From Botryllus schlosseri (Eukaryota): DNA of 60,000 nt. Below are positions 4,226 to 36,300 of the stretch, piece by piece. Location: NCBI GenBank assembly GCA_051294905.1, contig CM119372.1, forward strand, positions 23,314,001 to 23,374,000, given 5' to 3'. Positions within the stretch are counted from its first letter, which is position 1, and the number at the start of each line of letters is the position of its first letter. The notes below the pieces were generated by a model. The model worked only from the letters and a program-made list of their open reading frames with translations, was not told the DNA's origin and did no database searches. The translations under genes and the position numbers were made by a program.

Positions 4226-6069
4226 ACTAATTACCAAAATACCAAAAAATTTTCTGAAGTGTCCCAAATTTTGAAGAAATGTCAATTTCTCTAATTTTCG
4301 ATTTTACCCATAATTGCTCCTCATTAATCACAATAACTCTTCATTGGAGATAAGAAAACGCTAATGAAAAGATTAATATGAACAAAGATAGCTTACTCAT
4401 GCATCAAGTAACAATGCAAACACTTTAAAATCGACAGAAGTGGTTTTGTCTGCGTGACTTTCGTCTGTGAAATGAGATAGCTTCTCTTAATATGGACCAC
4501 AAATAACACCAGGTCACAAAATTTTGCAGAATTTTACTTGAGTAAATTTTTTTATGTATTGTGTTTTGCTATTCCAAACCAATCACTAAAATACAAAATT
4601 TCTTCTGAAGTGTCCCTATAGTCCTTGAGAAATGTTACTTTTCTGATTTCTCGTTTTACTCGAAATTGCCCCTACGCATAATTCCTTACTGGACGTACAA
4701 ACACACTATCATAACGAAGGAATATGCACAAATAGTGACTACCATAGATTATAAAAGGATGGAAACTCTTCAAAAAATTTCCGAAGTGGTTTAGTTCTCA
4801 TGATTTGGGTTTATAGATTGAGAAATCTGCTGGAATTATGGATCGCAAATAATCCCCCATCATGATGCAATTCCACCACTCTCAGTATCTTCTTTCCAAA
4901 TCATACATATCTTCCTGAAATACGTCACTATGTTCCTTGCTTACATCACCTGTATTTGAACTAATAAAATCAAGGTGAAAGTGCGGGTAATGCGGTTTGA
5001 AGGACATGCCCCACTCTATTTTTTTTCATCGATCATATTGTTTACCAGAGGTTTATATTCATTGCTTCGTTTATTTCAAAGAAAATTTTCAACTACATCT
5101 CGAAATGCCTTAAATGCTCCTGCTTCTTTCGCAGTCATTTTATTGTGAAGTGCTTTACAAAAGATTGCTAACATTCACGCACAAGCAAAGAGAACCTGCC
5201 ACAGAAAAATACCGTGAAAATCGTTCATGCCCTTTTCTCGATGAAGGCATCGTTCCCTAGCTTTAACCTTGGAGTCAGAATTTCCGCATTTGATTTAGTG
5301 AGTCCCAACTAAATGATCAAGTTCGTATTGGTTCGGAATGTGTGGTTCTGGATTTATCTCTATATGGGAGATGTTGAAGTCGACATCGGGGTCATTTTTC
5401 CGTATCTTTAAGCCCTGTCGAGTCTTCTTGGATGTTTTTTGTCCGGTAGTCTTGGCAGTGAAGACTTACTGCAATACGGAACAGGTGCTCAAGAGGATAT
5501 GGCATAGAACAGTGGTCCTTAACCTTTTTTTCTCCAGCGCCCCCTTTCAAAAATTGCCAGGGTCTGGCGCCCCCCCCCCCTATTTTAAGGACTGTAGTTG
5601 TTTGCGATTACGCATGTTATTTGTTGTTCTGTGTTTGATGACGTTTTTAGAGGAATTAGTTTCCAATTCAACTGTCCTTGAAGGGTAAGTGGTCGAAGGG
5701 TAAGTGGTCGAAGTCCGATATCGGGTTTGGTACTTCATTATCAGACCACTCGACTAATTAACGGTATAATTGTATGTGCTAATCTCGGAATCAAATCCAG
5801 GTTGTTATAACAAACATTGGGTATAAGGCCTACGGGCTCATAGTATTTGGTTCGAGATCGATATACACATCCCGAATTCTCCTATGCGATTGGCAATACG
5901 GGGAAGGTAATAGTATTGGGTTTTGTTTTATTGCTTTGTGTGACTACTAAGTCAACTGAGAATGTGGTAGAAATTTGCTCACATTATATTTAGTACTGCA
6001 CCAAGCTCTTAACTTTAACATGAATGTGGGTAACAACAGTAGTTATGTAGATCGCTCGCATGACGCCAT

Positions 6070-6600
6070 TGGTTCTTATGGGCGGGGTGGCATGGTGCCG
6101 AGAAACCGGGGGTGGCATGGTGACCCTTATGTCTTATGGCGGGGGTGGCATGGTGCCATTGTGTCTTATGGCGGGGGTGGCATGGTTACCTTTTCGGGTA
6201 TAGGCTGCGGCGGCATGGTGCCGTGAAACTCGTGGTGGCATGGTGACCCTTATAACTATAGGCTGCGGTCGCATGGTGCCACTGTGTCTTATGGGTGCGG
6301 TGACATGGTTACCTTTTTCGGGTATAGACGGCGGCGGCATATGCTAACGTGAAAACTCGTGGTGGCATGCTAATGTTTTTTGGTATACGTGCGGTGACAT
6401 GCTATCGACGATAAATGTGTCTGTCATGTATTCTTACGGGATCTGTGGTGACTCACCATGAGTTCTTATGGGTGCGGTCGTGAATCGCCCTTTCGGGTAT
6501 AGGCATCTCTCGCATGTCGTACTTTCGCGTATAGGCTGTGGTGGTGATTCGCCATGTGTTCTTATGGGTTCGGTCGTGATTCGCACTTTCAACCATCTCT
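6070..6600. repeat. GC-rich subterminal tandem repeats (~30-bp units containing GGCATGGT); mirrored at ~19215-19745
   Basis: Repeated TCTTATGGCGGGGGTGGCATGGTG(C/A)C-like units that degenerate inward. Confidence 0.85.
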
Positions 6601-6734
6601 CGCGTGGTGTTGAATAGTCACCAACAATAACCGCGCAAACGGAAACGTGGCTTGCAAGAGGATTTACGCAGTGCGTGCGACAGACGGCGATTCGAATATC
6701 AACAATAACCGCGTTCGCAAACTAACACTTCCAA

Positions 6735-7450
6735 AAGATGTGAAATATTTGTAAAATCCTACGATCGCTCACAAGATACCACTTCCGGCATATCGATCTA
6801 TCACTCAATACACAACCGAAGTTGAATTATAATTGAATGCGTAAATTTATCACCTCGGCATCAAAATTCGAAAACAACAACTTGATGCTTTATGTTCTCA
6901 CTCTAATTTCATGATAAGTGTAATAAGTGCCGAATAACAGATACACCACCGGCGAGACTTGGATACCAACAAATTGTCACTTATTTCTATTCTAGCCGTA
7001 ATCCTTTGTGAAGTTAACGCTTATTCAAAAAGGTGTGAAATATTTGCAAAACCCCGCGATCACTGACAAGATAATGTCTCGGACATAACCATCTTTCACG
7101 ACTTGGTGTCATAACCATACCGATCGCTCACGCGGTGAAATTTTAGTAATCAGTTTGTCACAGAACTTGATTTCGCTGGTAAGATTTAACAAGTAACGAA
7201 TAACAGACCGCCAGTGTCGGTAACTTGAATAGCGACAAATTGTCACTTATTTCCGCTCTAACCCTAATCCTTTGTGAAGTGAACGCTTATTCAAAAGGGC
7301 GTGATATAATTTTAAAATCCGACGACCACTCACCGGCTAATGCTTCAGACATAGCAATCCCTCATGTCCGCTCACAAGGTAATATTTCGGTAATTAGTTT
7401 GTCCCAGAACCATCGCAGACGGTGATTCGAAAACCAACAATTTGTCACTC
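6735..7450. repeat. Degenerate ~260-bp internal direct repeats (2-3 copies) in the arm; mirrored at ~18365-19080
   Basis: ACAAATTGTCACTTATTTC...TAATCCTTTGTGAAGT.AACGCTTATTCAAAA at ~6970-7030 and ~7235-7296. Confidence 0.7.
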
Positions 7451-7952
7451 GCCCGCGATCGCTATATGTTTCACGCCTCCAGAATAGTGGCTGACTTTAG
7501 TTGTGTGATAAGATCCATGAAAATATGCAATCAATGTGTTAGCTTATCAACTTGAAATGAAACTCACTACACAAATCAAGTCGATTCGTATCTGAATGTT
7601 TTAAATCGACACAACTCAAATCCTTTGACAAATCCCTTAACGCGTTTTTGTTGAATCGAACGTAACCCGAATATTACTGACGCCGACTTTCAGCCGCATC
7701 GAATTATTCGCACATTACGCGTCGCTGTTTTCACACTTATAGAATCAATACCAACTATAACTCTACAAGAATCAAGAATCACAAGTATGTGCATTACACA
7801 GTTATTGTCTTTATTAACTTGAAATCAAACACTTAACAAAAACACGCAACTAATCATTTGGCAACTCTAGCATTACCAAAAAATTCCAGTATTGTTGATT
7901 GAAAATCCTTGAGTCATTATTATCAAAAATGTTATAGTACCGCATCGGGATC

Positions 7953-8069
7953 CATTCGCGGGATGTACTAAAGGTAAATCCAAATAATCCACATTCGCGG
8001 GATGTACTAAAGGTAAATCCAAATAATCCACATTCGCGGGATGTACTAAAGGTAAATCAAAATAATCCA
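7953..8069. repeat. 39-bp tandem repeat x3; mirrored at 17746-17862
   Basis: CATTCGCGGGATGTACTAAAGGTAAATCCAAATAATCCA repeated three times. Confidence 0.95.
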
Positions 8070-10909
8070 GAATGAAATATTTGGACTTTGACATAGTGTG
8101 AATTGAAATAGGATTGACAAACACGACTACCAACTTTGATCCAGCCACATTTCAAGATCATACTTTGAAACAAGTAATGTAACATTACAACTCTATTCAC
8201 GATCCCGCTTTCCATTTGTCAAAGAGATATTTTAACATCTTACCATACTCAAAAGAATTATTCACAACATTAACAATTGTTCAAAATCTAGTTTTCACTT
8301 ACTTGATTATATCACTGCAACTCATAAATTTGAATTAATTCATCCTGGCTGTATTCGTATGCTCGGTCTTTTTTATTCAATTGTAAAGGTTGTTACTATT
8401 CTGAAGACAAAGTATTTACAAATCGGTGCATATACGATTCGACTTGGACATACTATATTTCGAGTATACGAGATTCGAATGTCTGAACAATAACTGAGAA
8501 ATAATTTATCACAATTAAATCCGTAATATTACAACGTAAAAGATATTGGAATGTCAGCAACTCTGTAAGGTCATAGTTACTACCACTAATTTACCCGACC
8601 AACTCGTCATGATCATTCCTGAAATCAACACAAACGTGACCACTGACTTGAGTTAACCACAAAACAGCATCAAGTTTTAAATCCACTTGTAGCTTACGGC
8701 TTATTTGAATGCGGGTTATGTTTTGTTGTAATTGAGTGTACGGAAATAGTATTACGTCTCGACATATCACCATGTCGGCATTTGTGACAGAGAATTGAAA
8801 CATATGCACTTTACAGAGTGTGAAAATATCACTTTGAGTATCGAGTACCGTTCGAAGCTAGCGATCAATTCTTAATCATTTCAGTAACTCCCCATTGTGT
8901 GTGCTAAATGTAAAATATCGCGAGGTTATACACTCTAAGACTTTGATCATTACAAAAGTAAATTGTGATATGTTTGTTAGATGCATCCAATTCAACTAGA
9001 AGTGTCTAGTGCCCAACACTCGTAATATCAAAAAAGTACTTGCTACACTGTTATTTGCTACGTGTTATGCATTGTTGTTTATTTGTAGTATTGAATGAAA
9101 TTGTTCTTGAACCCTCAAATAATAATCCCCGACATGAAACCAAGCCGCTGAAAGTCGTTACCATCACGAAGATAGAATGTGTACGATGTTTGTCAAATGT
9201 GTCCTACCTGACCAACAGAAAACAATTTTCACTAGCTTGGTAATGAAACCGAAGTCTCCATTCGATATTTTGTTTGTGTCAAATACTTTGCAATGAACAC
9301 ATTTGGGTGGTTGAGCTTTACATCATCAGACTGTCATCTGTACATCAAGAATACATCCGACTTGTAACCGGATCGTTTACCTAACCGAGTTGTATGCACA
9401 GTTTGATATTTTTGTCATTTAGTGATTGCTGAACATACCACTTCGAAATACTGCGTTGATCTTAATTTCCATCATCGTGATAAGTGAAGTACATTTGTTT
9501 TGAATTCAAAACAATAGGCTTTTCTACGACATGGTAAATTATTGACAAGTTCTGCTTAGAAGATTGGTTGCATATCACGAAAAATAATATACCACACATA
9601 TTATTACTGTTACTCCATTCATCGGCATTTTTTCCGTTGTCGATTTTCAAACGAGTAAAATTTATTACTTGAGTTGCTCTGCTTACTATATTTAAATGTA
9701 AACTCGCCCGTCTTTCAACAACAAACAATGTTAAAAAAGTATGCAATCAAACACAACAAGTTTTACGATACTAATTATTATCCCACATAACCCATTTCTT
9801 ACCGAAGACATATGAAATATATTCATGTTACACGAAAATATTCGCTCATGCTACAAACCTGTACAATGATTGGGGGTGCTTTCAAACTGTTTCGATACCT
9901 CAAGAACTTTATTGTCTGAACGGTTGTTCATGTATCGTAATAATCAAGTAGTTCAACATAGAACTAGTATTAACAGAAACATCAGAGTTGTTTACACAAA
10001 AGTTTGTATGCGTGCAGTATGCGAATACCATGTGTAAGTCCAGCACAATTGTGGTATCCATCCGGGTTTAGTTAACACAATTTACGACACCGAGGTCACC
10101 TCATCTTTCGTAAGACAACAAACCAACCAAGGTTTCAGGATATGTCCGTGTCATAGCAATAAATCAGCTACTACAACAACAGAGTACATATGTTTTCTAG
10201 TTACGGCGCTTACGTCTTACACACAAATCAATCCACTTTGCTAACAAAAAGTGCTGGGTCATCAAGTGATTACCCTAACAACAAAACAGCTAAACGTACT
10301 ATCATACAAAATGGCCGTTATAGTCACCAACGGTACATCGTACAAGTAACAAGTCTCGAGAATCCAGTTATTGAAAAAACATGAAAGTGTTTCTACACCA
10401 AGTCGTTATGTTGACGAAAGCGTATATTGTAATATCATGATCGATTTGCATTCGTGGTCACAAAATGTCACTACTCTAAATAATTATTTTTCACTCAAAC
10501 ACAAACGCATACTTGTCGCCAATCGTTTTCATCAAGCACGAGTTCAAGAAACCTGCTACGACATGAATTGTTATTTTTTTATGTTGTGTAAATAGGTAAT
10601 AATTAATTTTAGTAACACTATATCAACATCATCTAGTTGCGCGAATAGATTTACACGTGGTCTTGTGGTTTTAATCGAAGTACACAGCGCGGTCTAACGC
10701 GGAGTCATCTCTATTGTACAGCAACTCGGAAATCGAAATGCATGCATTAACATTTAAACAGCGATCGCGTTTCGTGACGCGAAAAATATGTTCACCACCG
10801 CGATACTCTGCACAGGGCGTGCAAATCCTTTTCACACTCGTAATAGTATACCAACGGCTACCGGCGACAACGTTTAACAATACCAACGACACTAAACATA
10901 CGATACCTA

Positions 10910-11700
10910 CCCAAGTAAAATTTCCATTTTCACCTGGAGGTCAGCCGTTACCTGACTAAAAATACCATTGTCCTTTGGAGATTTATCGTTTACCCAGTGT
11001 AACAATCCCCTTTTCACTTGGAAATATATTTTTGACCTGGATAACAAACCCCTTTTCACTTGGAAATCTATTTTTGCCCTGGATAACAAACCCCTTTTCA
11101 CTTGGAAATCTATTTTTGCCCTGGATAACAAACCTTTTTCACTTGGAAATATATTTTTTCTCTTGGTAACAAACCTTTTTCACTTGGAAATATATTTTTT
11201 CTCTGGTTAACAAACCTTTTTCACTTGGAAATATATTTTTTCTCTTGGTAACAAACCTTTTTCACTTGGAAATATATTTTTTCTCTGGTTAACAAACCTT
11301 TTTCACTTGGAAATATATTTTTTCTCTGGTTAACAAACCTTTTTCACTTGGAAATATATTTTTTCTCTTGGTAACAAACCTTTTTCACTTGGAAATATAT
11401 TTTTTCTCTGGGCAACAAACCTTTTTCCCCGGGTAACAAACCTTTTTCCCTGAGCAACAAGCCATTTTCACTTGGTGGGTCGTCGTTTACCTGAGTAAAA
11501 ATATCATTTTCCTTTGGAGATCTGGCGTTTACCCAGTGTAACAATACATTTTCTCTTGGTCATCTAGCTTTTCCTAGAGTAACTAATCATTTCTCCTGGG
11601 TAACAAACCCTTTTCGTCTGGAAAACTATCATTTACCCGAGTACCAATACCGTTTTCACTTGGAAATCTATCTTTTCCCTGGGTAACAATATCATTTTCG
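10910..11700. repeat. 41/42-bp minisatellite array; mirrored at ~14155-14905 with one fewer 41-bp unit
   Basis: Unit AACAAACCTTTTTCACTTGGAAATATATTTTTTCTCTTGGT; homogeneous core ~11040-11420 with diverged 42-bp flanking units. Confidence 0.95.
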
Positions 11701-12440
11701 TTTTGAAAACTGACAACCACACCGGACAATTTGATATTTTTGTATATTGTTACAACGGGTAGTGACAAAATATACACCAACAACGACTCCGATACATTTG
11801 TCTAATCAAATATTCACTTGCTCTGATGCATCCCATCAAAATCATTGGTTACTCACATACAATAACAATGTGCTGTTGTACATCGACATGTATGTTTTCG
11901 GAATTGGCGAATAAAGGGGTTTCCGATATGTCTGTGATGTCCGGGTTCGTGCTTTGGATTTTCCGGAGTCAAAATGTCTGAATAAAACACCTCCTTGACT
12001 TTGGTAACTGGTTGATACACGGATAATGGTGTTCGGAAAACGGATGAATTTATGTTCCCCATCGCGCTAATAACTCCGGGTTACTTGTGAGTTTCCTCAG
12101 GTCTGTTTACTATATTGTGTCTTTACTGGTCAATACATGTCGCTCCAGTCAGCTGCAACCGGATCACTAATATGAGAAAGTGTGTGGGCCTGATCCGGAT
12201 ATTCACTCATGAACCAACGACCAATATTCAAGTAAACATGTTACAGACCGTGTTTTGTCTCCATGAAAAATACCAATGCATACACCATCACATACAAGTA
12301 ACGTCACGATTGTTCACAAGTATTCGCGTAAACGAGGTGTACATACAATGTGTCGGTGTACAAACATCATGGAAAACAAATTCATGTTCTCAAGTATCAT
12401 CATGCGACGACTCTGTACATTCAATGTGGGTATAGATGAC

Positions 12441-13415
12441 TTGGGGACAGACAAGCAGCCATATTTGGACGTAACACGATCTTAGTATGAGCCGCCTCAA
12501 CCCAACTTGTGAAAAATGAATCTCACACGAGTACAACCCTTTCACGGGTTCACACCTTGATTTTGCAAGATTTTTCGGATTCTCATGTAGACTTGCATCG
12601 TGATCCAGACCTCGACTTAATCGGGTTGCGTAACTCGCTCAACCCCTACGTATCGTTGGTCATAACCTGCTAATTTTTTCGCTGAGACCGCAGTGTTTCA
12701 CCTGGTTTTATGTATTTGGTGATTACCATCGTTATCAATCTTTCACGCGATGAATATGTCGGATGTCGCTACTCCCACATAACGACTCCAGCTAAACATC
12801 GTGAGCAGTGACTCCGGATTGAAATCGCAAACAGGGACTCTGTGTGTGTGTGTGAATCTCGAGTTCGATTACGATTAGATAATGTAATCCAGGGTGTGTC
12901 TCTGCGAGCTGAAGGCGGATTTCGTGTTAATCACACCGCAAGAGGGTGCTATCTCGTAACTCGACAGGTCAACATAAATCGCGGTTGGAAACTTTTGGTC
13001 TAGTTGATCCAGCTACGTATTGAAACGTTGTACCCACACAGCCCATTGAGAAAACGTTGTCGTTACCTGACCATATCCACGAGTAAATATAGGGCTACGC
13101 GTAACTGTCCATAGATTCCTCTGGGCCCACACCGTGGTTTTACGACACAGACAAGATGCAGCGGTGGAAATATTGAAAATGAAAAACGATACCTTGGTGA
13201 CATTTGATTTGGATTTTACACCTGATGAACCATACACTCGATTGGTACATTGGGATGACAACTCTATCGTCGAGGTCGAGGGAAAAGAAATGTACAGATT
13301 TGTTGGTGTTGTGGATATTCAGCGAAAATCGGGATGCGTGATAGTACACGGTTCGCATATTTGACTGAGAATATATCGGTATGCATAATGCACTGTCCAT
13401 TGTATCATGTCGTGT
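12441..13415. other. Unique 975-bp spacer (loop) of the giant palindrome
   Basis: Arm symmetry stops at ...TAGATGAC (12440) and resumes at GTCATCTA (13416). Confidence 0.95.
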
Positions 13416-16400
13416 GTCATCTATGCCCACATTGAATGTACAGAGTCGTCGCATGATGATACTTGAGAACATGAATTTGTTTTCCATGATGTTTGTACAC
13501 CGACACATTGTATGTACACCTCGTTTACGCGAATACTTGTGAACAATCGTGACGTTACTTGTATGTGATGGTGTATGCATTGGTATTTTTCATGGAGACA
13601 AAACACGGTCTGTAACATGTTTACTTGAATATTGGTCGTTGGTTCATGAGTGAATATCCGGATCAGGCCCACACACTTTCTCATATTAGTGATCCGGTTG
13701 CAGCTGACTGGAGCGACATGTATTGACCAGTAAAGACACAATATAGTAAACAGACCTGAGGAAACTCACAAGTAACCCGGAGTTATTAGCGCGATGGGGA
13801 ACATAAATGCATCCGTTTTCCGAACACCATTATCCGTGTATCAACCAGTTACCAAAGTCAAGGAGGTGTTTTATTCAGACATTTTGACTCTGGAAAATCC
13901 AAAGCACGAACCCGGACATCACAGACATATCGGAAACCCCTTTATTCGCCAATTCCGAAAACATACATGTCGATGTACAACAGCACATTGTTATTGTATG
14001 TGAGTAACCAATGATTTTGATGGGATGCATCAGAGCAAGTGAATATTTGATTAGACAAATGTATCGGAGTCGTTGTTGGTGTATATTTTGTCACTACCCG
14101 TTGTAACAATATACAAAAATATCAAATTGTCCGGTGTGGTTGTCAGTTTTCAAAACGAAAATGATATTGTTACCCAGGGAAAAGATAGATTTCCAAGTGA
14201 AAACGGTATTGGTACTCGGGTAAATGATAGTTTTCCAGACGAAAAGGGTTTGTTACCCAGGAGAAATGATTAGTTACTCTAGGAAAAGCTAGATGACCAA
14301 GAGAAAATGTATTGTTACACTGGGTAAACGCCAGATCTCCAAAGGAAAATGATATTTTTACTCAGGTAAACGACGACCCACCAAGTGAAAATGGCTTGTT
14401 GCTCAGGGAAAAAGGTTTGTTACCCGGGGAAAAAGGTTTGTTGCCCAGAGAAAAAATATATTTCCAAGTGAAAAAGGTTTGTTAACCAGAGAAAAAATAT
14501 ATTTCCAAGTGAAAAAGGTTTGTTAACCAGAGAAAAAATATATTTCCAAGTGAAAAAGGTTTGTTACCAAGAGAAAAAATATATTTCCAAGTGAAAAAGG
14601 TTTGTTAACCAGAGAAAAAATATATTTCCAAGTGAAAAAGGTTTGTTACCAAGAGAAAAAATATATTTCCAAGTGAAAAAGGTTTGTTATCCAGGGCAAA
14701 AATAGATTTCCAAGTGAAAAGGGGTTTGTTATCCAGGGCAAAAATAGATTTCCAAGTGAAAAGGGGTTTGTTATCCAGGTCAAAAATATATTTCCAAGTG
14801 AAAAGGGGATTGTTACACTGGGTAAACGATAAATCTCCAAAGGACAATGGTATTTTTAGTCAGGTAACGGCTGACCTCCAGGTGAAAATGGAAATTTTAC
14901 TTGGGTAGGTATCGTATGTTTAGTGTCGTTGGTATTGTTAAACGTTGTCGCCGGTAGCCGTTGGTATACTATTACGAGTGTGAAAAGGATTTGCACGCCC
15001 TGTGCAGAGTATCGCGGTGGTGAACATATTTTTCGCGTCACGAAACGCGATCGCTGTTTAAATGTTAATGCATGCATTTCGATTTCCGAGTTGCTGTACA
15101 ATAGAGATGACTCCGCGTTAGACCGCGCTGTGTACTTCGATTAAAACCACAAGACCACGTGTAAATCTATTCGCGCAACTAGATGATGTTGATATAGTGT
15201 TACTAAAATTAATTATTACCTATTTACACAACATAAAAAAATAACAATTCATGTCGTAGCAGGTTTCTTGAACTCGTGCTTGATGAAAACGATTGGCGAC
15301 AAGTATGCGTTTGTGTTTGAGTGAAAAATAATTATTTAGAGTAGTGACATTTTGTGACCACGAATGCAAATCGATCATGATATTACAATATACGCTTTCG
15401 TCAACATAACGACTTGGTGTAGAAACACTTTCATGTTTTTTCAATAACTGGATTCTCGAGACTTGTTACTTGTACGATGTACCGTTGGTGACTATAACGG
15501 CCATTTTGTATGATAGTACGTTTAGCTGTTTTGTTGTTAGGGTAATCACTTGATGACCCAGCACTTTTTGTTAGCAAAGTGGATTGATTTGTGTGTAAGA
15601 CGTAAGCGCCGTAACTAGAAAACATATGTACTCTGTTGTTGTAGTAGCTGATTTATTGCTATGACACGGACATATCCTGAAACCTTGGTTGGTTTGTTGT
15701 CTTACGAAAGATGAGGTGACCTCGGTGTCGTAAATTGTGTTAACTAAACCCGGATGGATACCACAATTGTGCTGGACTTACACATGGTATTCGCATACTG
15801 CACGCATACAAACTTTTGTGTAAACAACTCTGATGTTTCTGTTAATACTAGTTCTATGTTGAACTACTTGATTATTACGATACATGAACAACCGTTCAGA
15901 CAATAAAGTTCTTGAGGTATCGAAACAGTTTGAAAGCACCCCCAATCATTGTACAGGTTTGTAGCATGAGCGAATATTTTCGTGTAACATGAATATATTT
16001 CATATGTCTTCGGTAAGAAATGGGTTATGTGGGATAATAATTAGTATCGTAAAACTTGTTGTGTTTGATTGCATACTTTTTTAACATTGTTTGTTGTTGA
16101 AAGACGGGCGAGTTTACATTTAAATATAGTAAGCAGAGCAACTCAAGTAATAAATTTTACTCGTTTGAAAATCGACAACGGGAAAAATGCCGATGAATGG
16201 AGTAACAGTAATAATATGTGTGGTATATTATTTTTCGTGATATGCAACCAATCTTCTAAGCAGAACTTGTCAATAATTTACCATGTCGTAGAAAAGCCTA
16301 TTGTTATGAATTCAAAACAAATGTACTTCACTTATCACGATGATGGAAATTAAGATCAACGCAGTATTTCGAAGTGGTATGTTCAGCAATCACTAAATGA

Positions 16401-19400
16401 CAAAAATATCAAACTGTGCATACAACTCGGTTAGGTAAACGATCCGGTTACAAGTCGGATGTATTCTTGATGTACAGATGACAGTCTGATGATGTAAAGC
16501 TCAACCACCCAAATGTGTTCATTGCAAAGTATTTGACACAAACAAAATATCGAATGGAGACTTCGGTTTCATTACCAAGCTAGTGAAAATTGTTTTCTGT
16601 TGGTCAGGTAGGACACATTTGACAAACATCGTACACATTCTATCTTCGTGATGGTAACGACTTTCAGCGGCTTGGTTTCATGTCGGGGATTATTATTTGA
16701 GGGTTCAAGAACAATTTCATTCAATACTACAAATAAACAACAATGCATAACACGTAGCAAATAACAGTGTAGCAAGTACTTTTTTGATATTACGAGTGTT
16801 GGGCACTAGACACTTCTAGTTGAATTGGATGCATCTAACAAACATATCACAATTTACTTTTGTAATGATCAAAGTCTTAGAGTGTATAACCTCGCGATAT
16901 TTTAAATTTAGCACACACAATGGGGAGTTACTGAAATGATTAAGAATTGATCGCTAGCTTCGAACGGTACTCGATACTCAAAGTGATATTTTCACACTCT
17001 GTAAAGTGCATATGTTTCAATTCTCTGTCACAAATTCCGACATGGTGATATGTCGAGACGTAATACTATTTCCGTACACTCAATTACAACAAAACATAAC
17101 CCGCATTCAAATAAGCCGTAAGCTACAAGTGGATTTAAAACTTGATGCTGTTTTGTGGTTAACTCAAGTCAGTGGTCACGTTTGTGTTGATTTCAGGAAT
17201 GATCATGACGAGTTGGTCGGGTAAATTAGTGGTAGTAACTATGACCTTACAGAGTTGCTGACATTCCAATATCTTTTACGCTGTAATATTACGGATTTAA
17301 TTGTGATAAATTATTTCTCAGTTATTGTTCAGACATTCAAATCTCGTATACTCGAAATATAGTATGTCCAAGTCGAATCGTATATGCACCGATTTGTAAA
17401 TACTTTGTCTTCAGAATAGTAACAACCTTTACAATTGAATAAAAAAGACCGAGCATACGAATACAACCAGGATGAATTAATTCAAATTTATGAGTTGCAG
17501 TGATATAATCAAGTAAGTGAAAACTAGATTTTGAACAATTGTTAATGTTGTGAATAATTCTTTTGAGTATGGTAAGATGTTAAAATATCTCTTTGACAAA
17601 TGGAAAGCGGGATCGTGAATAGAGTTGTAATGTTACATTACTTGATTCAAAGTATGATCTTGAAATGTGGCTGGATCAAAGTTGGTAGTCGTGTTTGTCA
17701 ATCCTATTTCAATTCACACTATGTCAAAGTCCAAATATTTCATTCTGGATTATTTGGATTTACCTTTAGTACATCCCGCGAATGTGGATTATTTGGATTT
17801 ACCTTTAGTACATCCCGCGAATGTGGATTATTTGGATTTACCTTTAGTACATCCCGCGAATGGATCCCGATGCGGTACTATAACATTTTTGATAATAATG
17901 ACTCAAGGATTTTCAATCAACAATACTGGAATTTTTTGGTAATGCTAGAGTTGCCAAATGATTAGTTGCGTGTTTTTGTTAAGTGTTTGATTTCAAGTTA
18001 ATAAAGACAATAACTGTGTAATGCACATACTTGTGATTCTTGATTCTTGTAGAGTTATAGTTGGTATTGATTCTATAAGTGTGAAAACAGCGACGCGTAA
18101 TGTGCGAATAATTCGATGCGGCTGAAAGTCGGCGTCAGTAATATTCGGGTTACGTTCGATTCAACAAAAACGCGTTAAGGGATTTGTCAAAGGATTTGAG
18201 TTGTGTCGATTTAAAACATTCAGATACGAATCGACTTGATTTGTGTAGTGAGTTTCATTTCAAGTTGATAAGCTAACACATTGATTGCATATTTTCATGG
18301 ATCTTATCACACAACTAAAGTCAGCCACTATTCTGGAGGCGTGAAACATATAGCGATCGCGGGCGAGTGACAAATTGTTGGTTTTCGAATCACCGTCTGC
18401 GATGGTTCTGGGACAAACTAATTACCGAAATATTACCTTGTGAGCGGACATGAGGGATTGCTATGTCTGAAGCATTAGCCGGTGAGTGGTCGTCGGATTT
18501 TAAAATTATATCACGCCCTTTTGAATAAGCGTTCACTTCACAAAGGATTAGGGTTAGAGCGGAAATAAGTGACAATTTGTCGCTATTCAAGTTACCGACA
18601 CTGGCGCTCTGTTATTCGTTACTTGTTAAATCTTACCAGCGAAATCAAGTTCTGTGACAAACTGATTACTAAAATTTCACCGCGTGAGCGATCGGTATGG
18701 TTATGACACCAAGTCGTGAAAGATGGTTATGTCCGAGACATTATCTTGTCAGTGATCGCGGGGTTTTGCAAATATTTCACACCTTTTTGAATAAGCGTTA
18801 ACTTCACAAAGGATTACGGCTAGAATAGAAATAAGTGACAATTTGTTGGTATCCAAGTCTCGCCGGTGGTGTATCTGTTATTCGGCACTTATTACACTTA
18901 TCATGAAATTAGAGTGAGAACATAAAGCATCAAGTTGTTGTTTTCGAATTTTGATGCCGAGGTGATAAATTTACGCATTCAATTATAATTCAACTTCGGT
19001 TGTGTATTGAGTGATAGATCGATATGCCGGAAGTGGTATCTTGTGAGCGATCGTAGGATTTTACAAATATTTCACATCTTTTGGAAGTGTTAGTTTGCGA
19101 ACGCGGTTATTGTTGATATTCGAATCGCCGTCTGTCGCACGCACTGCGTAAATCCTCTTGCAAGCCACGTTTCCGTTTGCGCGGTTATTGTTGGTGACTA
19201 TTCAACACCACGCGAGAGATGGTTGAAAGTGCGAATCACGACCGAACCCATAAGAACACATGGCGAATCACCACCACAGCCTATACGCGAAAGTACGACA
19301 TGCGAGAGATGCCTATACCCGAAAGGGCGATTCACGACCGCACCCATAAGAACTCATGGTGAGTCACCACAGATCCCGTAAGAATACATGACAGACACAT

Positions 19401-19777
19401 TTATCGTCGTTAGCATGTCACCGCACGTATACCAAAAAACATTAGCATGCCACCACGAGTTTTCACGTTAGCATATGCCGCCGCCGTCTATACCCGAAAA
19501 AGGTAACCATGTCACCGCACCCATAAGACACAGTGGCACCATGCGACCGCAGCCTATAGTTATAAGTGTCACCATGCCACCACGAGTTTCACGGCACCAT
19601 GCCGCCGCAGCCTATACCCGAAAAGGTAACCATGCCACCCCCGCCATAAGACACAATGGCACCATGCTACCCCCGCCATAAGACATAAGGGTCACCATGC
19701 CACCCCCGGTTTCTCGGCACCATGCCACCCCGCCCATAAGAACCAATGGCGTCATGCGAGCGATCTACATAACTACT
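13416..19777 (-). repeat. Right arm of giant inverted repeat (6362 bp)
   Basis: Reverse complement of 6038-12440 with ~16 substitutions seen by eye and one 41-bp unit missing. Confidence 0.97.
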
Positions 19778-20895
19778 AACAACAGTAAGCAGTATCCTCC
19801 TTTATGATACGATGAAGAAATATTCTGACGATATGATTTTGTAGCTCTCAAATACAAGTATATTTAGTTAATCATTTGGGCCACAAAGCTTCAAAACATC
19901 TTTAATGTACAAAGGACATCAGTCTCAAAAGTTGTACAGTACGGTGCCATTGTCGATTTCGACACGCAGTGCGCTTCAGGATACCATACCTAGTTCAAAA
20001 CATTTTGTGGAAAATAACCCGAGCTATCAGTATAAGTACCAGTCTATTAATATTTTCATCATTTCATAACACCACAAAACTGCGATGCAATGAAAAGATA
20101 GGAAGGAGTCGAAATGTCTTGGAAGCTAACGTGACGGGAGTGTTTTAACGGGTAATTGGCAATCCAAATGTAGGCTACGCCAAATTCATTTTAAATGAAT
20201 TAAAATGAACCACTGTATTCATGAAAACATCGTCGGTGGATATTTCGCGATGAGCGCAACGAAAAACGTTGTGATTTGACAGATTCTGTCGAATGTTGGT
20301 TTGCAATTTGAGCTCAGGGATATATAGAACCATTGTTCTGCTATATAATCATATGTCCTTACTACACCATTCACTGTGAGGCCATTTTTCTTCAGCGCCC
20401 CCATACCGCCCCTTGAACTCATCGCCCCCCCCCCTGAACGTTTCCGCCCTTTCAAAATCCAAATCGCCCCCTGGTGGGCGATGTAGACAAGGTTAACCAC
20501 CACTGGCATAGAAGGATATGCAGTGTCAAGTCATTTTTTAGTTAATCTGAACCTTGGAATGTCACCCATACAGAAATAACAGTCATCTATAAGGTTTCGA
20601 ATTCCCCTTCAGATTCTTTAATAGCAAATGACATTGAATGCCGATCTTCCCTTAGCCATCCATCCATATTTCATCGGCATGTTTTGAAGATTACATGAAA
20701 TGCCCAGTTTTTATCTTTGTCACCAATCTTCATGCCAAAGTAAAGTTCATAAGTATAAAAAACCTTACTTCTATCTATAATTTGTACTTAACTTGTTTCA
20801 AACTGATATACAGACCACAGATATATCAAAAAACAGTCAGCAGGCAGACTACATTTGTGATGTTGATAATACTGATGAGATTATACGCACTAGAT

Positions 20896-30300: not shown

Positions 30301-33300
30301 AGAAGACTTGTCCCAATCCGCGGAATATCTTATGCAGTAGCCCAGGAATAGGGAACCCATGACTTAAATTTCAGTGATTTGAACACTTCAGATTAGACAG
30401 CATGCTAGCAATATACGTGAAGCACAAACACTTTGTATTAATTAAAATAATACCAATTCACTCACAAGGTCGTTCTCTATCAGTGAGTACAAAGTCCCGG
30501 CCTTCGGTGTTCTCAAAAGATGCTATTAGAGCTCTCATGCAAGGAGTATCAACAGGAGGCGGTGAGGGCACTGGTGGTGTGGGTCTTTCCGGCAGCGTCA
30601 CAGCACTAACAATGAAAACGTCGTTAAGGCCGGAACGAAAAACTGACATCTCGGTTGCATCGCACAGTACCAATTTAGAAATCATATTTCATTCACAGTG
30701 TGCGTTTACACTGAGCTTATAATTCAAGAATATGGTGGGCAGTCGTCAATACCAGGATCGCTTCCACAGCTTATTTGACATAACCGGAGATATAGGACGT
30801 TATCATCCCTCCCAAGCACGCTGAAGAGAATATGACAACGGAAAGCTTCGAACTTCTTACAGTTCGTTAAATATAGCCCCACCAGGTGAAGTTCAGCTTT
30901 TCCTCGTCTGATTTGTCAAGACAGTCGTCAACGCCGTCGCACAAATACGCACTCGGTAAGCAAGACTCCCCGCGCGATGTGTTGCACGAATATGTGTAGA
31001 CACTGCAATCTGTCAAAGTCAGGCGTTTATCTATGGGCAGGAACCCTCATAGCCTATTTAATGCTGTCAGCAGAGTATCTTTAAAGGCCCATAGGAAGAC
31101 ATCAACCATACAAATCCTCAGGAAAGACTAATAGATCGATACATGGACATCGAGTGGAGGGGGGTAATGTTACTGCGTGAAAACATGTTTAATAGCTTCT
31201 TGGAGGTATAGAACTTCAATATACAATTGACAAGCATATTCATATTGAAATGAACTCGAAAATTTTCGGCTGGAAAGTACATTGTATATCAACAATCGTA
31301 TCACATAATATGACGTCGCCGGCATGAAATTTCCAATAATCGGGGCGGAGAGAGCGCGAAGCGAGCGCGAAGCTCCAAATTGGAGCCTTGGAGTCGGCCA
31401 ATCAAGCATGTGCCTATAGACAGAGTTTGTGTGCCATCTAAAAATAGTAGCCTACATTAAGCTTAAGCGCTCTCTCCGCCCGATTATTCGAAATTTTATG
31501 CCGGTGACGTCATATTTTGTGATACGATGCTCTTTCCAATTCTCTACTATAGTTGCTGACGATTATCCCTGACGAGTGTCAGCCGAAAATATTCGGGTTC
31601 ATTTCAAGTACATGGTTAATATTATAACAAATCCCACATGTAGAAACGAATGTATGAAACGAATATAAGAATATACTTTCTCATATCATATCTAAAACTA
31701 ATCAAGTAATTGCAGAAAATTTCTACTTCGCATTGCCAGCAATAATATCCAGGCTGTAGGCCCAACGGCATAGGGCAGTAATCGGGAACCTTCAGCGTAT
31801 AAAGAGCCATTTAAACCCATTTTCAGTCATATAAGATCATCCGAGTCGCAAACTCTAGTGAGCCGATCCGACGTCTTATGGAAATGGTCGAAACTCCATT
31901 GTAAGAATAACACCTCTTCGAATCTTCCAAGCTTAGGCTACAGTGTGCTGGCTGCTGATGTTGTCGACGCTAACACAGGATAGATACCGGAATCATCAGC
32001 AAATAATAAATGGAATATATGCATTATGCAATCTCAATATGCGTTTATGCGTTTCGGTTTCGCTCATTTATTTTAAATCTTAATGGTGATAGGCAACGAG
32101 CGCTGATGAGAATCGTTCTATGGTAATACCAAGAATTGTTCCGCGAAGCTGGAAGAAAATTGTCAAGTTCAATAAACCTGTCCCGAAAGTTATTATTGTA
32201 TTGCAAGAAAGTCGACTGATAGCCCACTGATAGCCTGAACGACCAGAAGAAGATGAAGTGTCACGGGCTATGACCTCGCGAGGGACAAGAGGCAAAGGGA
32301 AAGCACTGACTCTGAAGATTATATCCAGCCAACCAGAAGGTTCAATAGCTACTAGGGTGAAATAAAGGGAACGGACTCGTGTATCAGCTGCGGCAGGCCG
32401 ATTGCATTCTCGAACCAAAGCTCGGTATGTACCTGTATGCAATGTCAAACTGAAAATTGTATTATGCAGGCGTTCTGCAACACGAAAGATCAATTCATCG
32501 TGACGGGCGAACAATTAACTAACAATACAACAATAATCTGCGGGACCTGCAAAAGCGAATGCCAAATATCTAGCTGCTGTGGTAACCTAATCCGAAATGA
32601 GGATGCCAAGTTTTACAAATCGTGCGCAAGGTGCACGAAATCGAAGAGGCAAAAGTCCGCAAACATTAACAAGTAACGTTCATTATGGCAGGTCCGAATA
32701 TTTTTAAGATACTAACAATCAATGTCAACGGAATGAGTCTAGACAGTAAAAGAGAACTAATATTTAAATAAATTAAGGACACAGGCGCCGACATAATTTG
32801 TCTGCAAGAAACGCACTCCACCCTGGATACTGAAAGAACTTGGGCTGCAGAATGGAAGGGAAAGTCATTTTGCAATTCCGGAAACGGGAAAACGGCAGGA
32901 ACAGCAGTTCTACTAACGCACAGAAGGAAATCATACAGAACACTGAACCAGACGATGGATACGGAAGGAAGAATACTACTAATCCGAATCAAGTCATGTA
33001 AAATCAATCTCACTATCACTAACGTATACGGTCACAATAACAGAACAAAAAGAAGAGCACTCTTGCGTCAACTCGCAACAAGAATAAGCAGGAAAGAACG
33101 GCACGACAGCTGCTAACTCGACCGCGAACCGCCCAACATAACAAGACTTGGAGAAGACGCCCGATACAATCGCTCAGTAATGAGGACCATAGGAGTGACC
33201 GACGCATTTCGTGACACAAATGGGGATAAAAAAGACTACACATATTTCTACCTTAAGGAAAGTCCAGATTGGACAGGATCTACACCTCGAAAGGTATAAT

Positions 33301-36300
33301 ACCTCTAAATTGCAAACATATAACCTGCACCCTTACAGACCACGACGCGGTGACTGCGACCTTGCGCGTAAAAGGAAAGAGTCCGAGGCCTATAATTCAT
33401 GGAAGAATAACACACAAATATACGAAAAGGAGGCGTTCCAAAATGACTTCCAAGTAAAATGGCGAAGATGGAAGACGCTGCATCCAGCCCAGGAATATAT
33501 AGAAGTTCTATATATCCCTGATCCAGCCATATACGAAACAAAAATCGAATGGTGGAAAGCCGTCAAGAGGAAATCAAAGCACCTCGCTGTGAGACACGCA
33601 GGGGAAACCCTAAAAGAAAAGCAGATCATCAGATTGAAGGAGGAGAAAGAGCTCGAAGAGGTAAGACAAAATGTTCTACGAAATAACATCTCTGAACATC
33701 TCTTCCATACAGAAAAATAAAGAAGAAAATATGGAAGAGGAAAGCGGGAGAGCTATCCAAGCTTCAGGCGGAAGCAAAAGCCTAGCGAGAAACGATCCTG
33801 GACAACAATCCTTACTTCCTTTGTCAGACTATAAGGAAGAGGAAGGAGGCGGTGAACATCGAAGAACTAAAAGACGCAAATGGAACAACAACCTCGGATG
33901 ACGAACAAATAAGAACAATCATCGAAAAATACTACACTGAGCTATACGGTGAGAAACAAACAAACCAACCAACAAACTGCAAGTAGTTTTCTCAGGTATC
34001 AGAAAAAACAGCTAACGATGTAACAGCAGGAGAAAATAGACGCTCCCATCACCGAAGATGAGGTCCGTTTAGCCATTGCACAACAAAACAGGAATCGAAC
34101 TCCGGGGGAGGATGGGATCAGCGTGGAATTATAAATTGAGAACAGAGACACAATAGCCGAAGATTTGACCAACGTGTTCAATGAAATTTACACTACGCAG
34201 GAAGTATCGAGCGGCCTCGCAAGAGGAATTCTTAAAGGTCATTTACAAGAACGGTGATGCAAAAAAATATAGAAAATTACAGACCAATAACACTTTTGAA
34301 CTGTGACTATGAAATACTAAGCAAAATTCTTTCCAACAGAGTAAAGGCGGCGCTGCCGAACATCACGCATCGGCGCTGCCGAACATCACGCATTCGTAAA
34401 CCAGCCCAACACCATTGGGCAGCTGAGCCTCTTGATCAGGGAAGCAGCATCAGAAATGAGATCCAAAGAACAAGGCGCGATAATATCTATCGATTTCAAA
34501 AAGGCATACGACACGGTAGATCACAATTACCTACAGGAAGCACTAAAAGCGGCAGGCTTCGGGTCAACCTTTCGTGAATTCTACCGGCAAGTATACGAAA
34601 AGAGCAAATCGCGAGTTGGAGGGAGAATTGGTAACGAAATAGAAATTCAGACGGGAATTAAACAAGGCGAACCTATTTCCATGTATCTGTTCACCATTGT
34701 CACCGAATCTTTGTTACAGAGCCTCAACCAGAACCTAGCCGGGTACAAACTGACCGGACTCAGGAACAGAATCACCACCCCGGCGTACGCCGATGACGTG
34801 ACAATAACGCTGGCGAAAGTACAAGATTGCGAAAAGGCCGTGCGCATCATCACCCATTTCGGAAAAGCAAGCGGACTACAAATTAATTGGGAAAAAAACA
34901 AAAGGAATAAAATTTGGAGCAGAAGGCCAGTACAATACAACATAACGGCGATCAAATGAGCCGATGAGGTTAGTATATTAGGAGCAACAATAGCCCACAA
35001 ATTGCAAGCAACGGAACAGCAATGGGAAGCGGCAATTGACAAAACAGATCGAAGCATTCAAGAACTGAAAAAGATGAAATTTCAAAGGTATGAAAAAATA
35101 GAACTAACAAGGACCAATATTCTTCCTTTGTTCGCATATTACGCCACCACCTCGAGAATGCCGAAGGACCTGAAGACCAAACTGAGAGGACTCATTATGT
35201 CATTCCTGTTCGGCATGGAGAAGAAGGGGGATTACAACTAGACAATTCAAAAGGAGTAGATCGGAGGGCTAGGCTTGACCGATATACCAAGAATCAAGGA
35301 TCTCATCTTCATCAAGCCTGCGATCCAGTATTTAAAAGACTCGGGGAAAAACACAGAGACAGAAAATGACGGAAGATTGGAGCACCAGCTGGCAATCATC
35401 CTCAACAGGAACAGAAAAAAACAAATTACCTAATAACAGACCTCATGCATTTCAGCCGCAACCACACTGGGTGGAAGTGAACGAAACAATGAGGGAACTG
35501 GGAACCCTGGACGCAGACTACGAAAAAGGAAGTTCGAAGGACACATACCGGGCGACAATCGCAAGGCAACACAGAAGGGAAATCATGGACATGGAAGGCC
35601 CGAGCTGGAAGAACGTACGGGCAAAATACCTCACGCGAAAGCAAAGAGACTTCAACTGGGATGCGGCGCATCAAATACTTCCAACCATGGATAAGTTGAA
35701 CGCACGCCTGGTCACACCAACATGTAAGTGTGTGCTCTGCGAAATCCGAAGTGAATCTCATGTCCATATTTTTACCCAGTGTGATACAATTACACCAGTT
35801 CTAAACCTCATTTTAGGAGCGTGGGAACAAGTCACGGCAAATACCGAACAAAGAGCGAACATGCAGACCATACTTCATATGGCACATAAACGACCAATCA
35901 GGGAAGGCCATGAGCGAACTCTAATGATTCCAATCTCTATGTTCAAACAGGCGATATGGACTGGAAGAAACAAGAAGCTACACGAGACGCGCAAGATAGA
36001 TCGCCAGTGGCTGCTGAATTCCTTCAAGCGGAGAATAACGATGAGGAAACCGATCCCGCAAGACCCGCAGCTAGAAAACATCATCTCGAACATAAAGAAC
36101 AACATAATGGGGTGCACCTTCCGATGAAGCGAAGCGAAATTGAAATTCGGAATTATTGAGTTTATGAAATTTGAGTGTTGTGCCTTCTTACCGCTATGTG
36201 CTTTCCATTGTGGAATTTAACATACCATAAGAGCGTAATCAACAAAATGTAGCTTTCGAATAATAGCGAACGTGAAATCGCGGATCGGTAGGCCTATACA

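Follow-up and report, generated by a model that had tools for sequence, protein, structure and literature searches.

Introduction

In the consulted portions of a survey of vertebrate Mavericks (Barreat and Katzourakis, 2021; PMC8097293), these elements carry the end motif (AGT)2//(ACT)2 and a 6-bp duplication, and they measure 12.7-24.6 kb (mean 16.9 kb), with a constrained size of ~17 kb ± 10%. Their inverted ends span 46-1447 bp, with a mean of 402 bp, and the end repeat is tied to jumping-back initiation. According to the same source, Mavericks are widely suspected to be viruses, and particles have not been seen. Butterfly polintons, as described in the portion consulted of a recent report (10.1101/2025.02.07.637071), are coding elements whose terminal inverted repeats of ~2 kb carry hexon and adenain genes. 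Here, we describe an element at positions 6038-19777 of a 60,000-nt stretch of the Botryllus schlosseri genome (assembly GCA_051294905.1, contig CM119372.1, positions 23,314,001-23,374,000, forward strand; hereafter, the window). Two inverted arms around a short loop make up nearly all of this element. It is very likely a non-autonomous, gene-less Maverick/Polinton derivative, one of several hundred copies that descend from a single palindromic ancestor and are mobilized in trans.

The palindromic family resembles the autonomous Mavericks of these accounts in its end motif, its 6-bp duplication, its inverted ends, and its length of 13-16 kb. Unlike them, the window element is gene-less, has inverted ends of 6.4 kb, consists of inverted repeat over 93% of its length, and is one of several hundred family copies. 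With the butterfly polintons (10.1101/2025.02.07.637071), the palindromic family shares inverted ends of unusual length in which internal sequence is repeated, whereas its arms are three times longer and non-coding. In the literature searched, descriptions of inverted ends reach 1447 bp for vertebrates (PMC8097293) and ~2 kb for the gene-bearing ends of butterflies (10.1101/2025.02.07.637071). The 52-nt terminal palindromes of protist virophages, as presented in the consulted part of a 2026 preprint, are a different feature. No whole-element palindromic, non-coding Maverick derivative was found in the literature searched; Repbase and Dfam lay outside the scope of this search, and the genome paper of the species may mention the family. 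Long-armed, genome-sized Maverick parasites seem to be undescribed.

Two other kinds of genome invite comparison. Snap-back genomes are defined, in the part of the source consulted, as highly symmetric palindromes (PMC13506859). With copy-back and snap-back defective genomes, the palindromic family would share an end carried twice in inverted orientation, gene loss, reliance on a helper, and a single strand able to form a hairpin. Daniell and Mullenbach reportedly described, in 1978, defective adenovirus genomes with long inverted repetitions. Copy-back and snap-back genomes arise afresh in infections and are not inherited, whereas the palindromic family is a germ-line integrated, diversified lineage that has moved hundreds of times. 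Fresh generation during helper replication, a defining trait of snap-back genomes, is not what was found: the loop and the turn-around points are common to diverged copies, which indicates that the palindromic structure is inherited. Foldback (FB) elements of Drosophila have long inverted arms with tandem sub-repeats, together with terminal sequences of their own and a 9-bp duplication. Like Foldback elements and miniature inverted-repeat transposable elements (MITEs), the palindromic family is non-coding, presumably trans-mobilized, and built of long arms with tandem sub-repeats. Unlike these, it has Maverick ends, a 6-bp duplication, and near-helper length rather than a miniaturized form.

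Structure of the palindromic element and its insertion site

An inverted-repeat scan resolved positions 6038-19777 into two inverted arms around a 975-bp loop. The scan reported the arm pairs 6038-11405/14410-19777 and 11130-12440/13416-14726, which were joined to give the arms 6038-12440 and 13416-19777. When the left arm is globally aligned with the reverse-complemented right arm, 16 mismatches and one 41-bp indel appear over 6362 aligned bases (99.75% identity); the sole indel is one unit of a 41-bp tandem array. An inverted repeat of 6.4 kb cannot arise by chance. The coordinates and the lengths of arms and loop given in the preliminary description (6403, 6362, and 975 bp) are exact, and its AGTAGT at 6038, ACTACT at 19777, and AACAAC on both sides could all be read directly. 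The features of the element and of its immediate flanks are as follows (ORF, open reading frame).

5698-6037, no strand: host interspersed repeat, left part, interrupted by the element (many paralogues, 85-91% identity over positions 261-600 of the query)
6032-6037, no strand: left copy of the target-site duplication, AACAAC (direct reading; a single hexamer at paralogous empty sites)
6038-12440, plus strand: left arm, 6403 nt, non-coding (no ORF above 149 amino acids, no similarity to Maverick proteins, no Rfam family)
6038-6102, plus strand: terminal 65 nt, opening with (AGT)2 and common to autonomous Mavericks; presumed origin and integrase-binding end (terminus comparison)
6089-6369, plus strand: subterminal tandem repeats with periods of 32, 65, and 123 bp and the GGTGGCATGGTG motif (mirror at 19446-19726)
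7124-7991, plus strand: well-conserved arm block (block A), 93-97% identical in many copies
10999-11475, plus strand: 41-bp tandem array, 11.5 units (mirror at 14381-14816, 10.5 units)
12441-13415, no strand: loop, unique, 975 bp, non-coding (an 18-nt motif of it occurs in 9 of the 16 elements compared with the window)
13416-19777, minus strand: right arm, 6362 nt, reverse complement of the left arm, ending in (ACT)2 (alignment)
19778-19783, no strand: right copy of the target-site duplication, AACAAC (direct reading)
19784-20377, no strand: host interspersed repeat, right part (contiguous with the left part in 8 paralogues)

Between subfamilies, the subterminal repeat section (6089-6369) is the most variable part of the arm.

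The window element was inserted as a unit, with a Maverick-type 6-bp duplication. In 8 paralogues of the host repeat, the matches to the left and right flanks abut with an overlap of exactly 6 bases, as expected of an empty site, that is, of an uninterrupted target carrying a single hexamer. For example, C8:9798666-9799004 pairs in this way with C8:9798076-9798671, and C11:10002697-10003034 with C11:10003029-10003623. The host repeat is abundant, with 2141 (left) and 3381 (right) first-look candidates, and its paralogues are 84-91% identical. The chance of a single 6-bp duplication is 1/4096; yet 16 of the 17 elements read in this genome have one, and each is different.

Coding capacity

The longest reading frame between 5500 and 13500 does not exceed 149 amino acids. 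A tblastn search with 34 ORFs from the gene-bearing relatives C5, C11, C8b, and C8a returned no match inside the element at E ≤ 1e-3. This set included the PolB ORFs of C5 and C11, without a match in 6038-19777, and the rve-Chromo integrase ORF of C5, likewise without a match inside the element; capsid, packaging ATPase, and protease genes were equally unmatched there. Rfam at gathering thresholds recognized no family in 5500-20300. The preliminary description had seen no intact PolB, integrase, ATPase, or capsid ORF, and the empty tblastn search and the 149-residue limit on reading frames confirm it. ORFs of 60-149 amino acids in the loop were considered as genes and rejected; stops interrupt them in the homologous loops of other copies. 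As the best explanation, the window element keeps only its cis-acting ends, and the remainder consists of non-coding arms of ~6.4 kb and a 1-kb loop.

A family of palindromic elements in the genome

The genome that holds the window comprises 495 Mb in 219 contigs. The terminal 600 bp of the window element matches many sites in it, most of which form inverted pairs spaced 12-16 kb from each other. Sixteen further elements were read besides that of the window. Twelve of them are palindromic, as had been predicted along with their differing 6-bp duplications, and their arms of 4.8-8.1 kb are 98.9-99.98% identical as aligned. The lowest of these identities are distorted by out-of-register tandem repeats; outside the tandem arrays, the arms are at least 99.8% identical in all 13 palindromic copies. 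A perfect 6-bp duplication flanks all the elements read, that of the window included, with the exception of C6a, a chimera of two lineages. The duplications are GGTGTG, GTAACT, CATGAA, CTCGTT, CTAATA, TTTGTG, AACGTC, CACAGA, TGCGAT, GATAAC, CACCTG, CCCGGC, GTCGGT, CGCGTC, GACCCA, GTCGTT, and, in the window, AACAAC.

Between copies, the arms are homologous but no more than 75-97% identical, the loops measure ~0.9-1.0 kb in most cases, and arm lengths and loop boundaries are alike. At full length, the loop of the window is 92-93% identical in two of the copies read, and it recurs at 91-98% identity in 39 other loci scored; more distant copies have two conserved loop patches in common with the window, in either orientation. 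This homology of arms and loop indicates that the palindrome, including its turn-around region, was inherited from one ancestor. The preliminary description had taken the element for a defective genome produced by fold-back or template switching during replication. On this point it does not hold: the window copy is neither unique nor freshly made but reached its site by transposition, as one of several hundred members of a family that is old and diversified, and any fold-back event therefore occurred once, in the ancestor. Movement has continued until recently, as indicated by copies at other loci that are 98-100% identical to parts of the window arms.

The census of the family rests on motif counts and coordinates. 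Patterns were matched exactly with one mismatch allowed, a setting that misses diverged copies. Under it, the terminal motif occurs 148 times forward and 152 times in reverse, the arm motif 321 and 336 times, and the loop motif 336 and 293 times (629 in all), with 0 matches for each reversed-pattern control. The arm motif is missing from 4 of the 16 elements compared, and on contig C1 the loop motif lies between 15 of 21 arm-motif pairs. We conclude from these counts that the family appears to comprise several hundred copies, which by a very rough estimate would be ~1% of the genome.

Some copies call for separate mention. Near the end of contig C1 (40.35-40.82 Mb), at least five family copies lie within ~460 kb, and this region may accumulate palindromic elements. 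The center of C8b holds a 546-amino-acid ORF with a weak zf-BED match (E = 0.06; positions 6002-7639 of the piece read), and that of C8a an ORF of 265 amino acids (positions 7302-8096 of the piece read); neither could be assigned to a family, and both are probably nested insertions of other elements. The inner arms and loop were also considered as a separate, smaller element nested in a Maverick shell. This was rejected, as copies found through their inner parts reach Maverick ends with duplications.

Autonomous Mavericks as candidate helpers

Autonomous Mavericks with common termini, predicted in the preliminary description, are present in the same genome. C5 measures 15.5 kb and has inverted ends of 916 bp at 96.6% identity and the duplication CTCGTT, and C13-inner measures 16.3 kb and has inverted ends of 647 bp at 98.3% identity and the duplication GTCGTT. 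In these autonomous copies, the inverted ends lie ~14 kb apart. Within C13:18335848-18360442, C13-inner is inserted inside a non-autonomous family member (duplication CGCGTC), which indicates that helpers also land in their own satellites. The terminus of the window element matches that of C5 at 58 of 65 nt and that of C13-inner at 52 of 65, and the corresponding values for other non-autonomous copies are 54-60 of 65. Over the terminal ~640 bp, identity to C5 is 81%. The proposed Maverick derivation thus stands on the (AGT)2//(ACT)2 ends, the 6-bp duplication, the termini common to Mavericks of the same genome, the lack of genes, and the near-Maverick length.

Among the genes of these candidate helpers, a 1295-amino-acid ORF matches PF03175, the protein-primed PolB, at 32.3 bits (cutoff 25.8), and the PolB fragment of C5 aligns with PF03175-bearing proteins at E = 1e-116. 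An ORF of 359 amino acids combines rve (60.3 bits) and Chromo domains and corresponds to the integrase. A third, of 215 amino acids, is weakly similar to AAA/A32-like ATPases (RNA_helicase at 22.2 bits against a cutoff of 21.5, Pox_A32 below its cutoff) and is, on this weak match, a probable packaging ATPase. The structure of a 432-amino-acid ORF, modeled from 37 sequences with a predicted local distance difference test score (pLDDT) of 87.6, has its matches among double-jelly-roll capsid proteins, namely those of an iridovirus, PBCV-1, Sputnik, and mavirus (E = 1e-16 to 1e-12), and the ORF is accordingly taken to encode a capsid protein of this type. No protease was identified in the helpers, and searches of PDB sequences gave nothing usable for the PolB fragment, for the capsid ORF, or for a 188-amino-acid ORF. 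At least 36 PolB matches occur in the genome, and 29 of these have no in-frame stop.

A polymerase-bearing intermediate form

C11 (C11:3271754-3286594) is 14.8 kb long, is flanked by the duplication AACGTC, and has inverted ends of 1.9 kb that correspond to window positions 6038-8340. It shows homology to window positions 8773-12090 on one side only. The arms of the palindrome equal the right 5.7 kb of C11, and derivation may have run in either order. Its PolB gene has one in-frame stop, and the DNA is 95% identical to the C13 polymerase. Elements of this type form a tier with a polymerase gene and without integrase or capsid genes, to which 10 of the 36 PolB matches belong, starting near residue 158. 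Neither the inner arm nor the loop is represented in the autonomous copies. The earlier suggestion that the palindrome carries one end twice agrees only with the comparison to C11, where inner arm DNA stands on one side only.

Concerted evolution of the arms

Three blocks common to the copies were aligned and used for trees, namely 7124-7991 (block A), 9883-10311 (block B), and 11700-12368 (block C, next to the loop). In block A, all 13 copies have arms 99.5-100% identical to each other, while the median identity between copies is 89% (range 78.5-99.9%). Block B gives 99.5-100% within 12 of 13 copies, all but the chimera C6a, and a median of 86% between copies. Adjacent to the loop, block C exceeds 99% within 7 of 9 copies (C16, 95.0%; C9, 97.3%), with a between-copy median of 82%. 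In the block trees, the two arms of one copy are sisters almost everywhere. Arms that are nearly identical within copies while the copies themselves diverge indicate that the arms evolve in concert.

The trees also differ from one block to the next. The nearest relative of the window element is C6b in block A, C16 (identical) in block B, and the right arm of C16 together with C8a in block C. Such differences in topology indicate that the lineages are mosaics. The shifts between blocks and the loop-side arm differences in C16 and C9 show recombination or partial conversion between lineages. A gradient of mismatches along the arms was also considered and abandoned, as it is confounded by out-of-register alignment in the 41-bp arrays.

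Origin, mobilization, and size

The ancestor of the family would have arisen from one copy-back (fold-back) duplication of one end. A helper integrase would insert the palindromic element, and a helper protein-primed polymerase would replicate it from its (AGT)2 ends. We infer mobilization in trans from the common ends, the duplications, and the near-identical copies elsewhere in the genome. The arms may be kept identical by a displaced single strand that snaps back into a hairpin whose mismatches are repaired, or by chromosomal gene conversion from arm to arm. In the autonomous copies, where the inverted ends are shorter and lie far apart, these ends differ more from each other, a finding that fits the hairpin and gene-conversion models alike. 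In one copy, C2b, the left end reads (AGT)3 and the right end (ACT)2, with the TTTGTG duplication intact. This difference suggests end variation of the kind expected from slippage in jumping-back initiation.

Among the 100 terminal-motif matches listed, 41 pairs lie within 20 kb; none is shorter than 9.3 kb, and 38 measure 11.8-17.2 kb. A gene-less parasite normally shrinks. The long size is odd for a gene-less element and would fit a capsid limit. A need for near-genome length, with packaging into helper capsids as its most plausible reason, may be what keeps the size at 13-16 kb. In adenovirus vectors, small genomes show size-dependent packaging and dimerization.

A more far-reaching proposal is that the palindromes are true satellite genomes of Maverick virions. 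A half-length remnant would have been doubled by copy-back to a length that the capsid accepts; it would be replicated by the helper polymerase, its arms made identical again in each cycle through a snap-back hairpin, and it would have reached some ten times the numbers of its helpers. We offer this extension tentatively and consider it rather unlikely. If it were true, the family would be genomic evidence for size-selective Maverick particles of the animal type and for satellites that resemble defective interfering genomes, and transcribed copies could also provide a lasting supply of long hairpin RNA directed at helper ends.

Alternative explanations

Chromosomal gene conversion offers another account of the arms. 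Under this explanation, the family is real and mobilized by Mavericks, but the arms are identical only through conversion on the chromosome, and the element would be an integrase-dependent transposon only, with neither size selection nor virions. Sex-chromosome palindromes are known to have arms kept alike by gene conversion between inverted repeats. A spacer of only ~1 kb favors conversion from arm to arm, as do the near-identity of the arms in 13 of 13 palindromic copies (at least 99.8% outside tandem arrays) and the greater divergence of autonomous ends ~14 kb apart (96.6% over 916 bp in C5; 98.3% over 647 bp in C13-inner); the absence of motif matches from viral contig collections agrees with a life without virions. 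However, gene conversion accounts neither for the missing short derivatives among the 41 terminal-motif pairs (100 matches listed) nor for a gene-less element that stays at 13-16 kb. The (AGT)3 versus (ACT)2 variation suggests replication of the ends at the polymerase level, and block-wise mosaicism fits template switching among co-replicating molecules, although ectopic conversion could also give mosaicism. On balance, this explanation is possible, if somewhat unlikely. It is quite improbable that each palindromic copy was made afresh by fold-back replication of a half-length template. Such a process would agree with arms that are nearly identical in every copy and with loop orientations that differ between copies, but independent fold-backs would give different turn-around points, whereas arm lengths and loop boundaries are similar, loops measure ~0.9-1.0 kb in most copies, and the full-length loop recurs at 91-98% identity in 39 other loci scored. 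Half-length elements are also missing among the terminal-motif pairs (100 matches listed).

Very long inverted arms rich in tandem sub-repeats and a lack of coding capacity would equally suit a Foldback-like family of another superfamily, Maverick-like at its ends only. This is very improbable, for, over the terminal 65 nt, autonomous Mavericks are as similar to the window element as other family members are, the terminal 640 bp is 81% identical to C5, the 6-bp duplication and (AGT)2//(ACT)2 are Maverick traits in the vertebrate survey as far as consulted (PMC8097293), and the PolB-bearing C11 has the 1.9-kb ends and inner arm DNA in common with the palindromes. We give still less credence to an artefact of assembly or sequencing, in which a fold-back chimeric read was assembled as a palindrome. 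Long-read data are known to yield false palindromes whose arms are nearly identical, and locus-spanning reads are absent from the contigs of the public runs, which are ~150 bases or less. Yet 16 mismatches and one 41-bp unit set the arms apart, the architecture recurs at 12 other loci that are 75-97% identical to the window and have their own 6-bp duplications, the 8 paralogous empty sites fit the insertion exactly, and short contigs from two samples (runs X2 and X8) cross the junction of loop and right arm at 13415/13416.

Descent from a single palindromic ancestor with mobilization by Maverick helpers remains our preferred explanation, and several points weigh against it. No read or contig spans the locus in the four public runs placed on 5000-13500, whose contigs are ~150 bases or less. 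Copies were sampled by similarity to the window and are biased toward young relatives, and, the lineages being mosaic, a single origin rests on the homology of loop and arms and not on one tree. C11-type elements could be recombinants rather than progenitors, and the fold-back origin is not demonstrable. The clustering of sizes may come from common descent instead of selection, and arm identity could be due to chromosomal gene conversion with no requirement for replication. Palindromic DNA in extrachromosomal, protein-linked, or encapsidated form is hypothetical. Exact-match scans of a viral contig collection returned 0 matches for either motif, terminal or loop, and a scan of a metagenome collection returned 0 for the terminal motif; as such scans are weak tests in data from other species, they say little on packaging or distribution.

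Implications

The existence of hundreds of gene-less copies of near-genome length makes size-based packaging of Maverick DNA a testable question. Similarly, arms of 6 kb that stay identical while lineages diverge by 10-25% make it testable whether Maverick replication involves a single-strand, snap-back intermediate, as a panhandle model of adenovirus-like replication predicts. Several hundred long palindromes are also potential fragile sites, potential sources of hairpin RNA, and traps for assembly and repeat annotation.

Neighboring sequences

Outside the palindromic element, the window holds traces of other mobile DNA. A fragment of 38 amino acids at 31160-31270 (minus strand) is 66% identical to the C-terminal part of the C5 Maverick polymerase and, on this similarity, would be an isolated Maverick remnant. 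Further along, a degraded retrotransposon of the long interspersed nuclear element (LINE) type occupies 32356-36127 (plus strand), with Exo_endo_phos at 32772-33116, RVT_1 at 34345-34959, and zf-RVT at 35336-36127. This degraded retrotransposon explains the strong AT skew at 32-36 kb.

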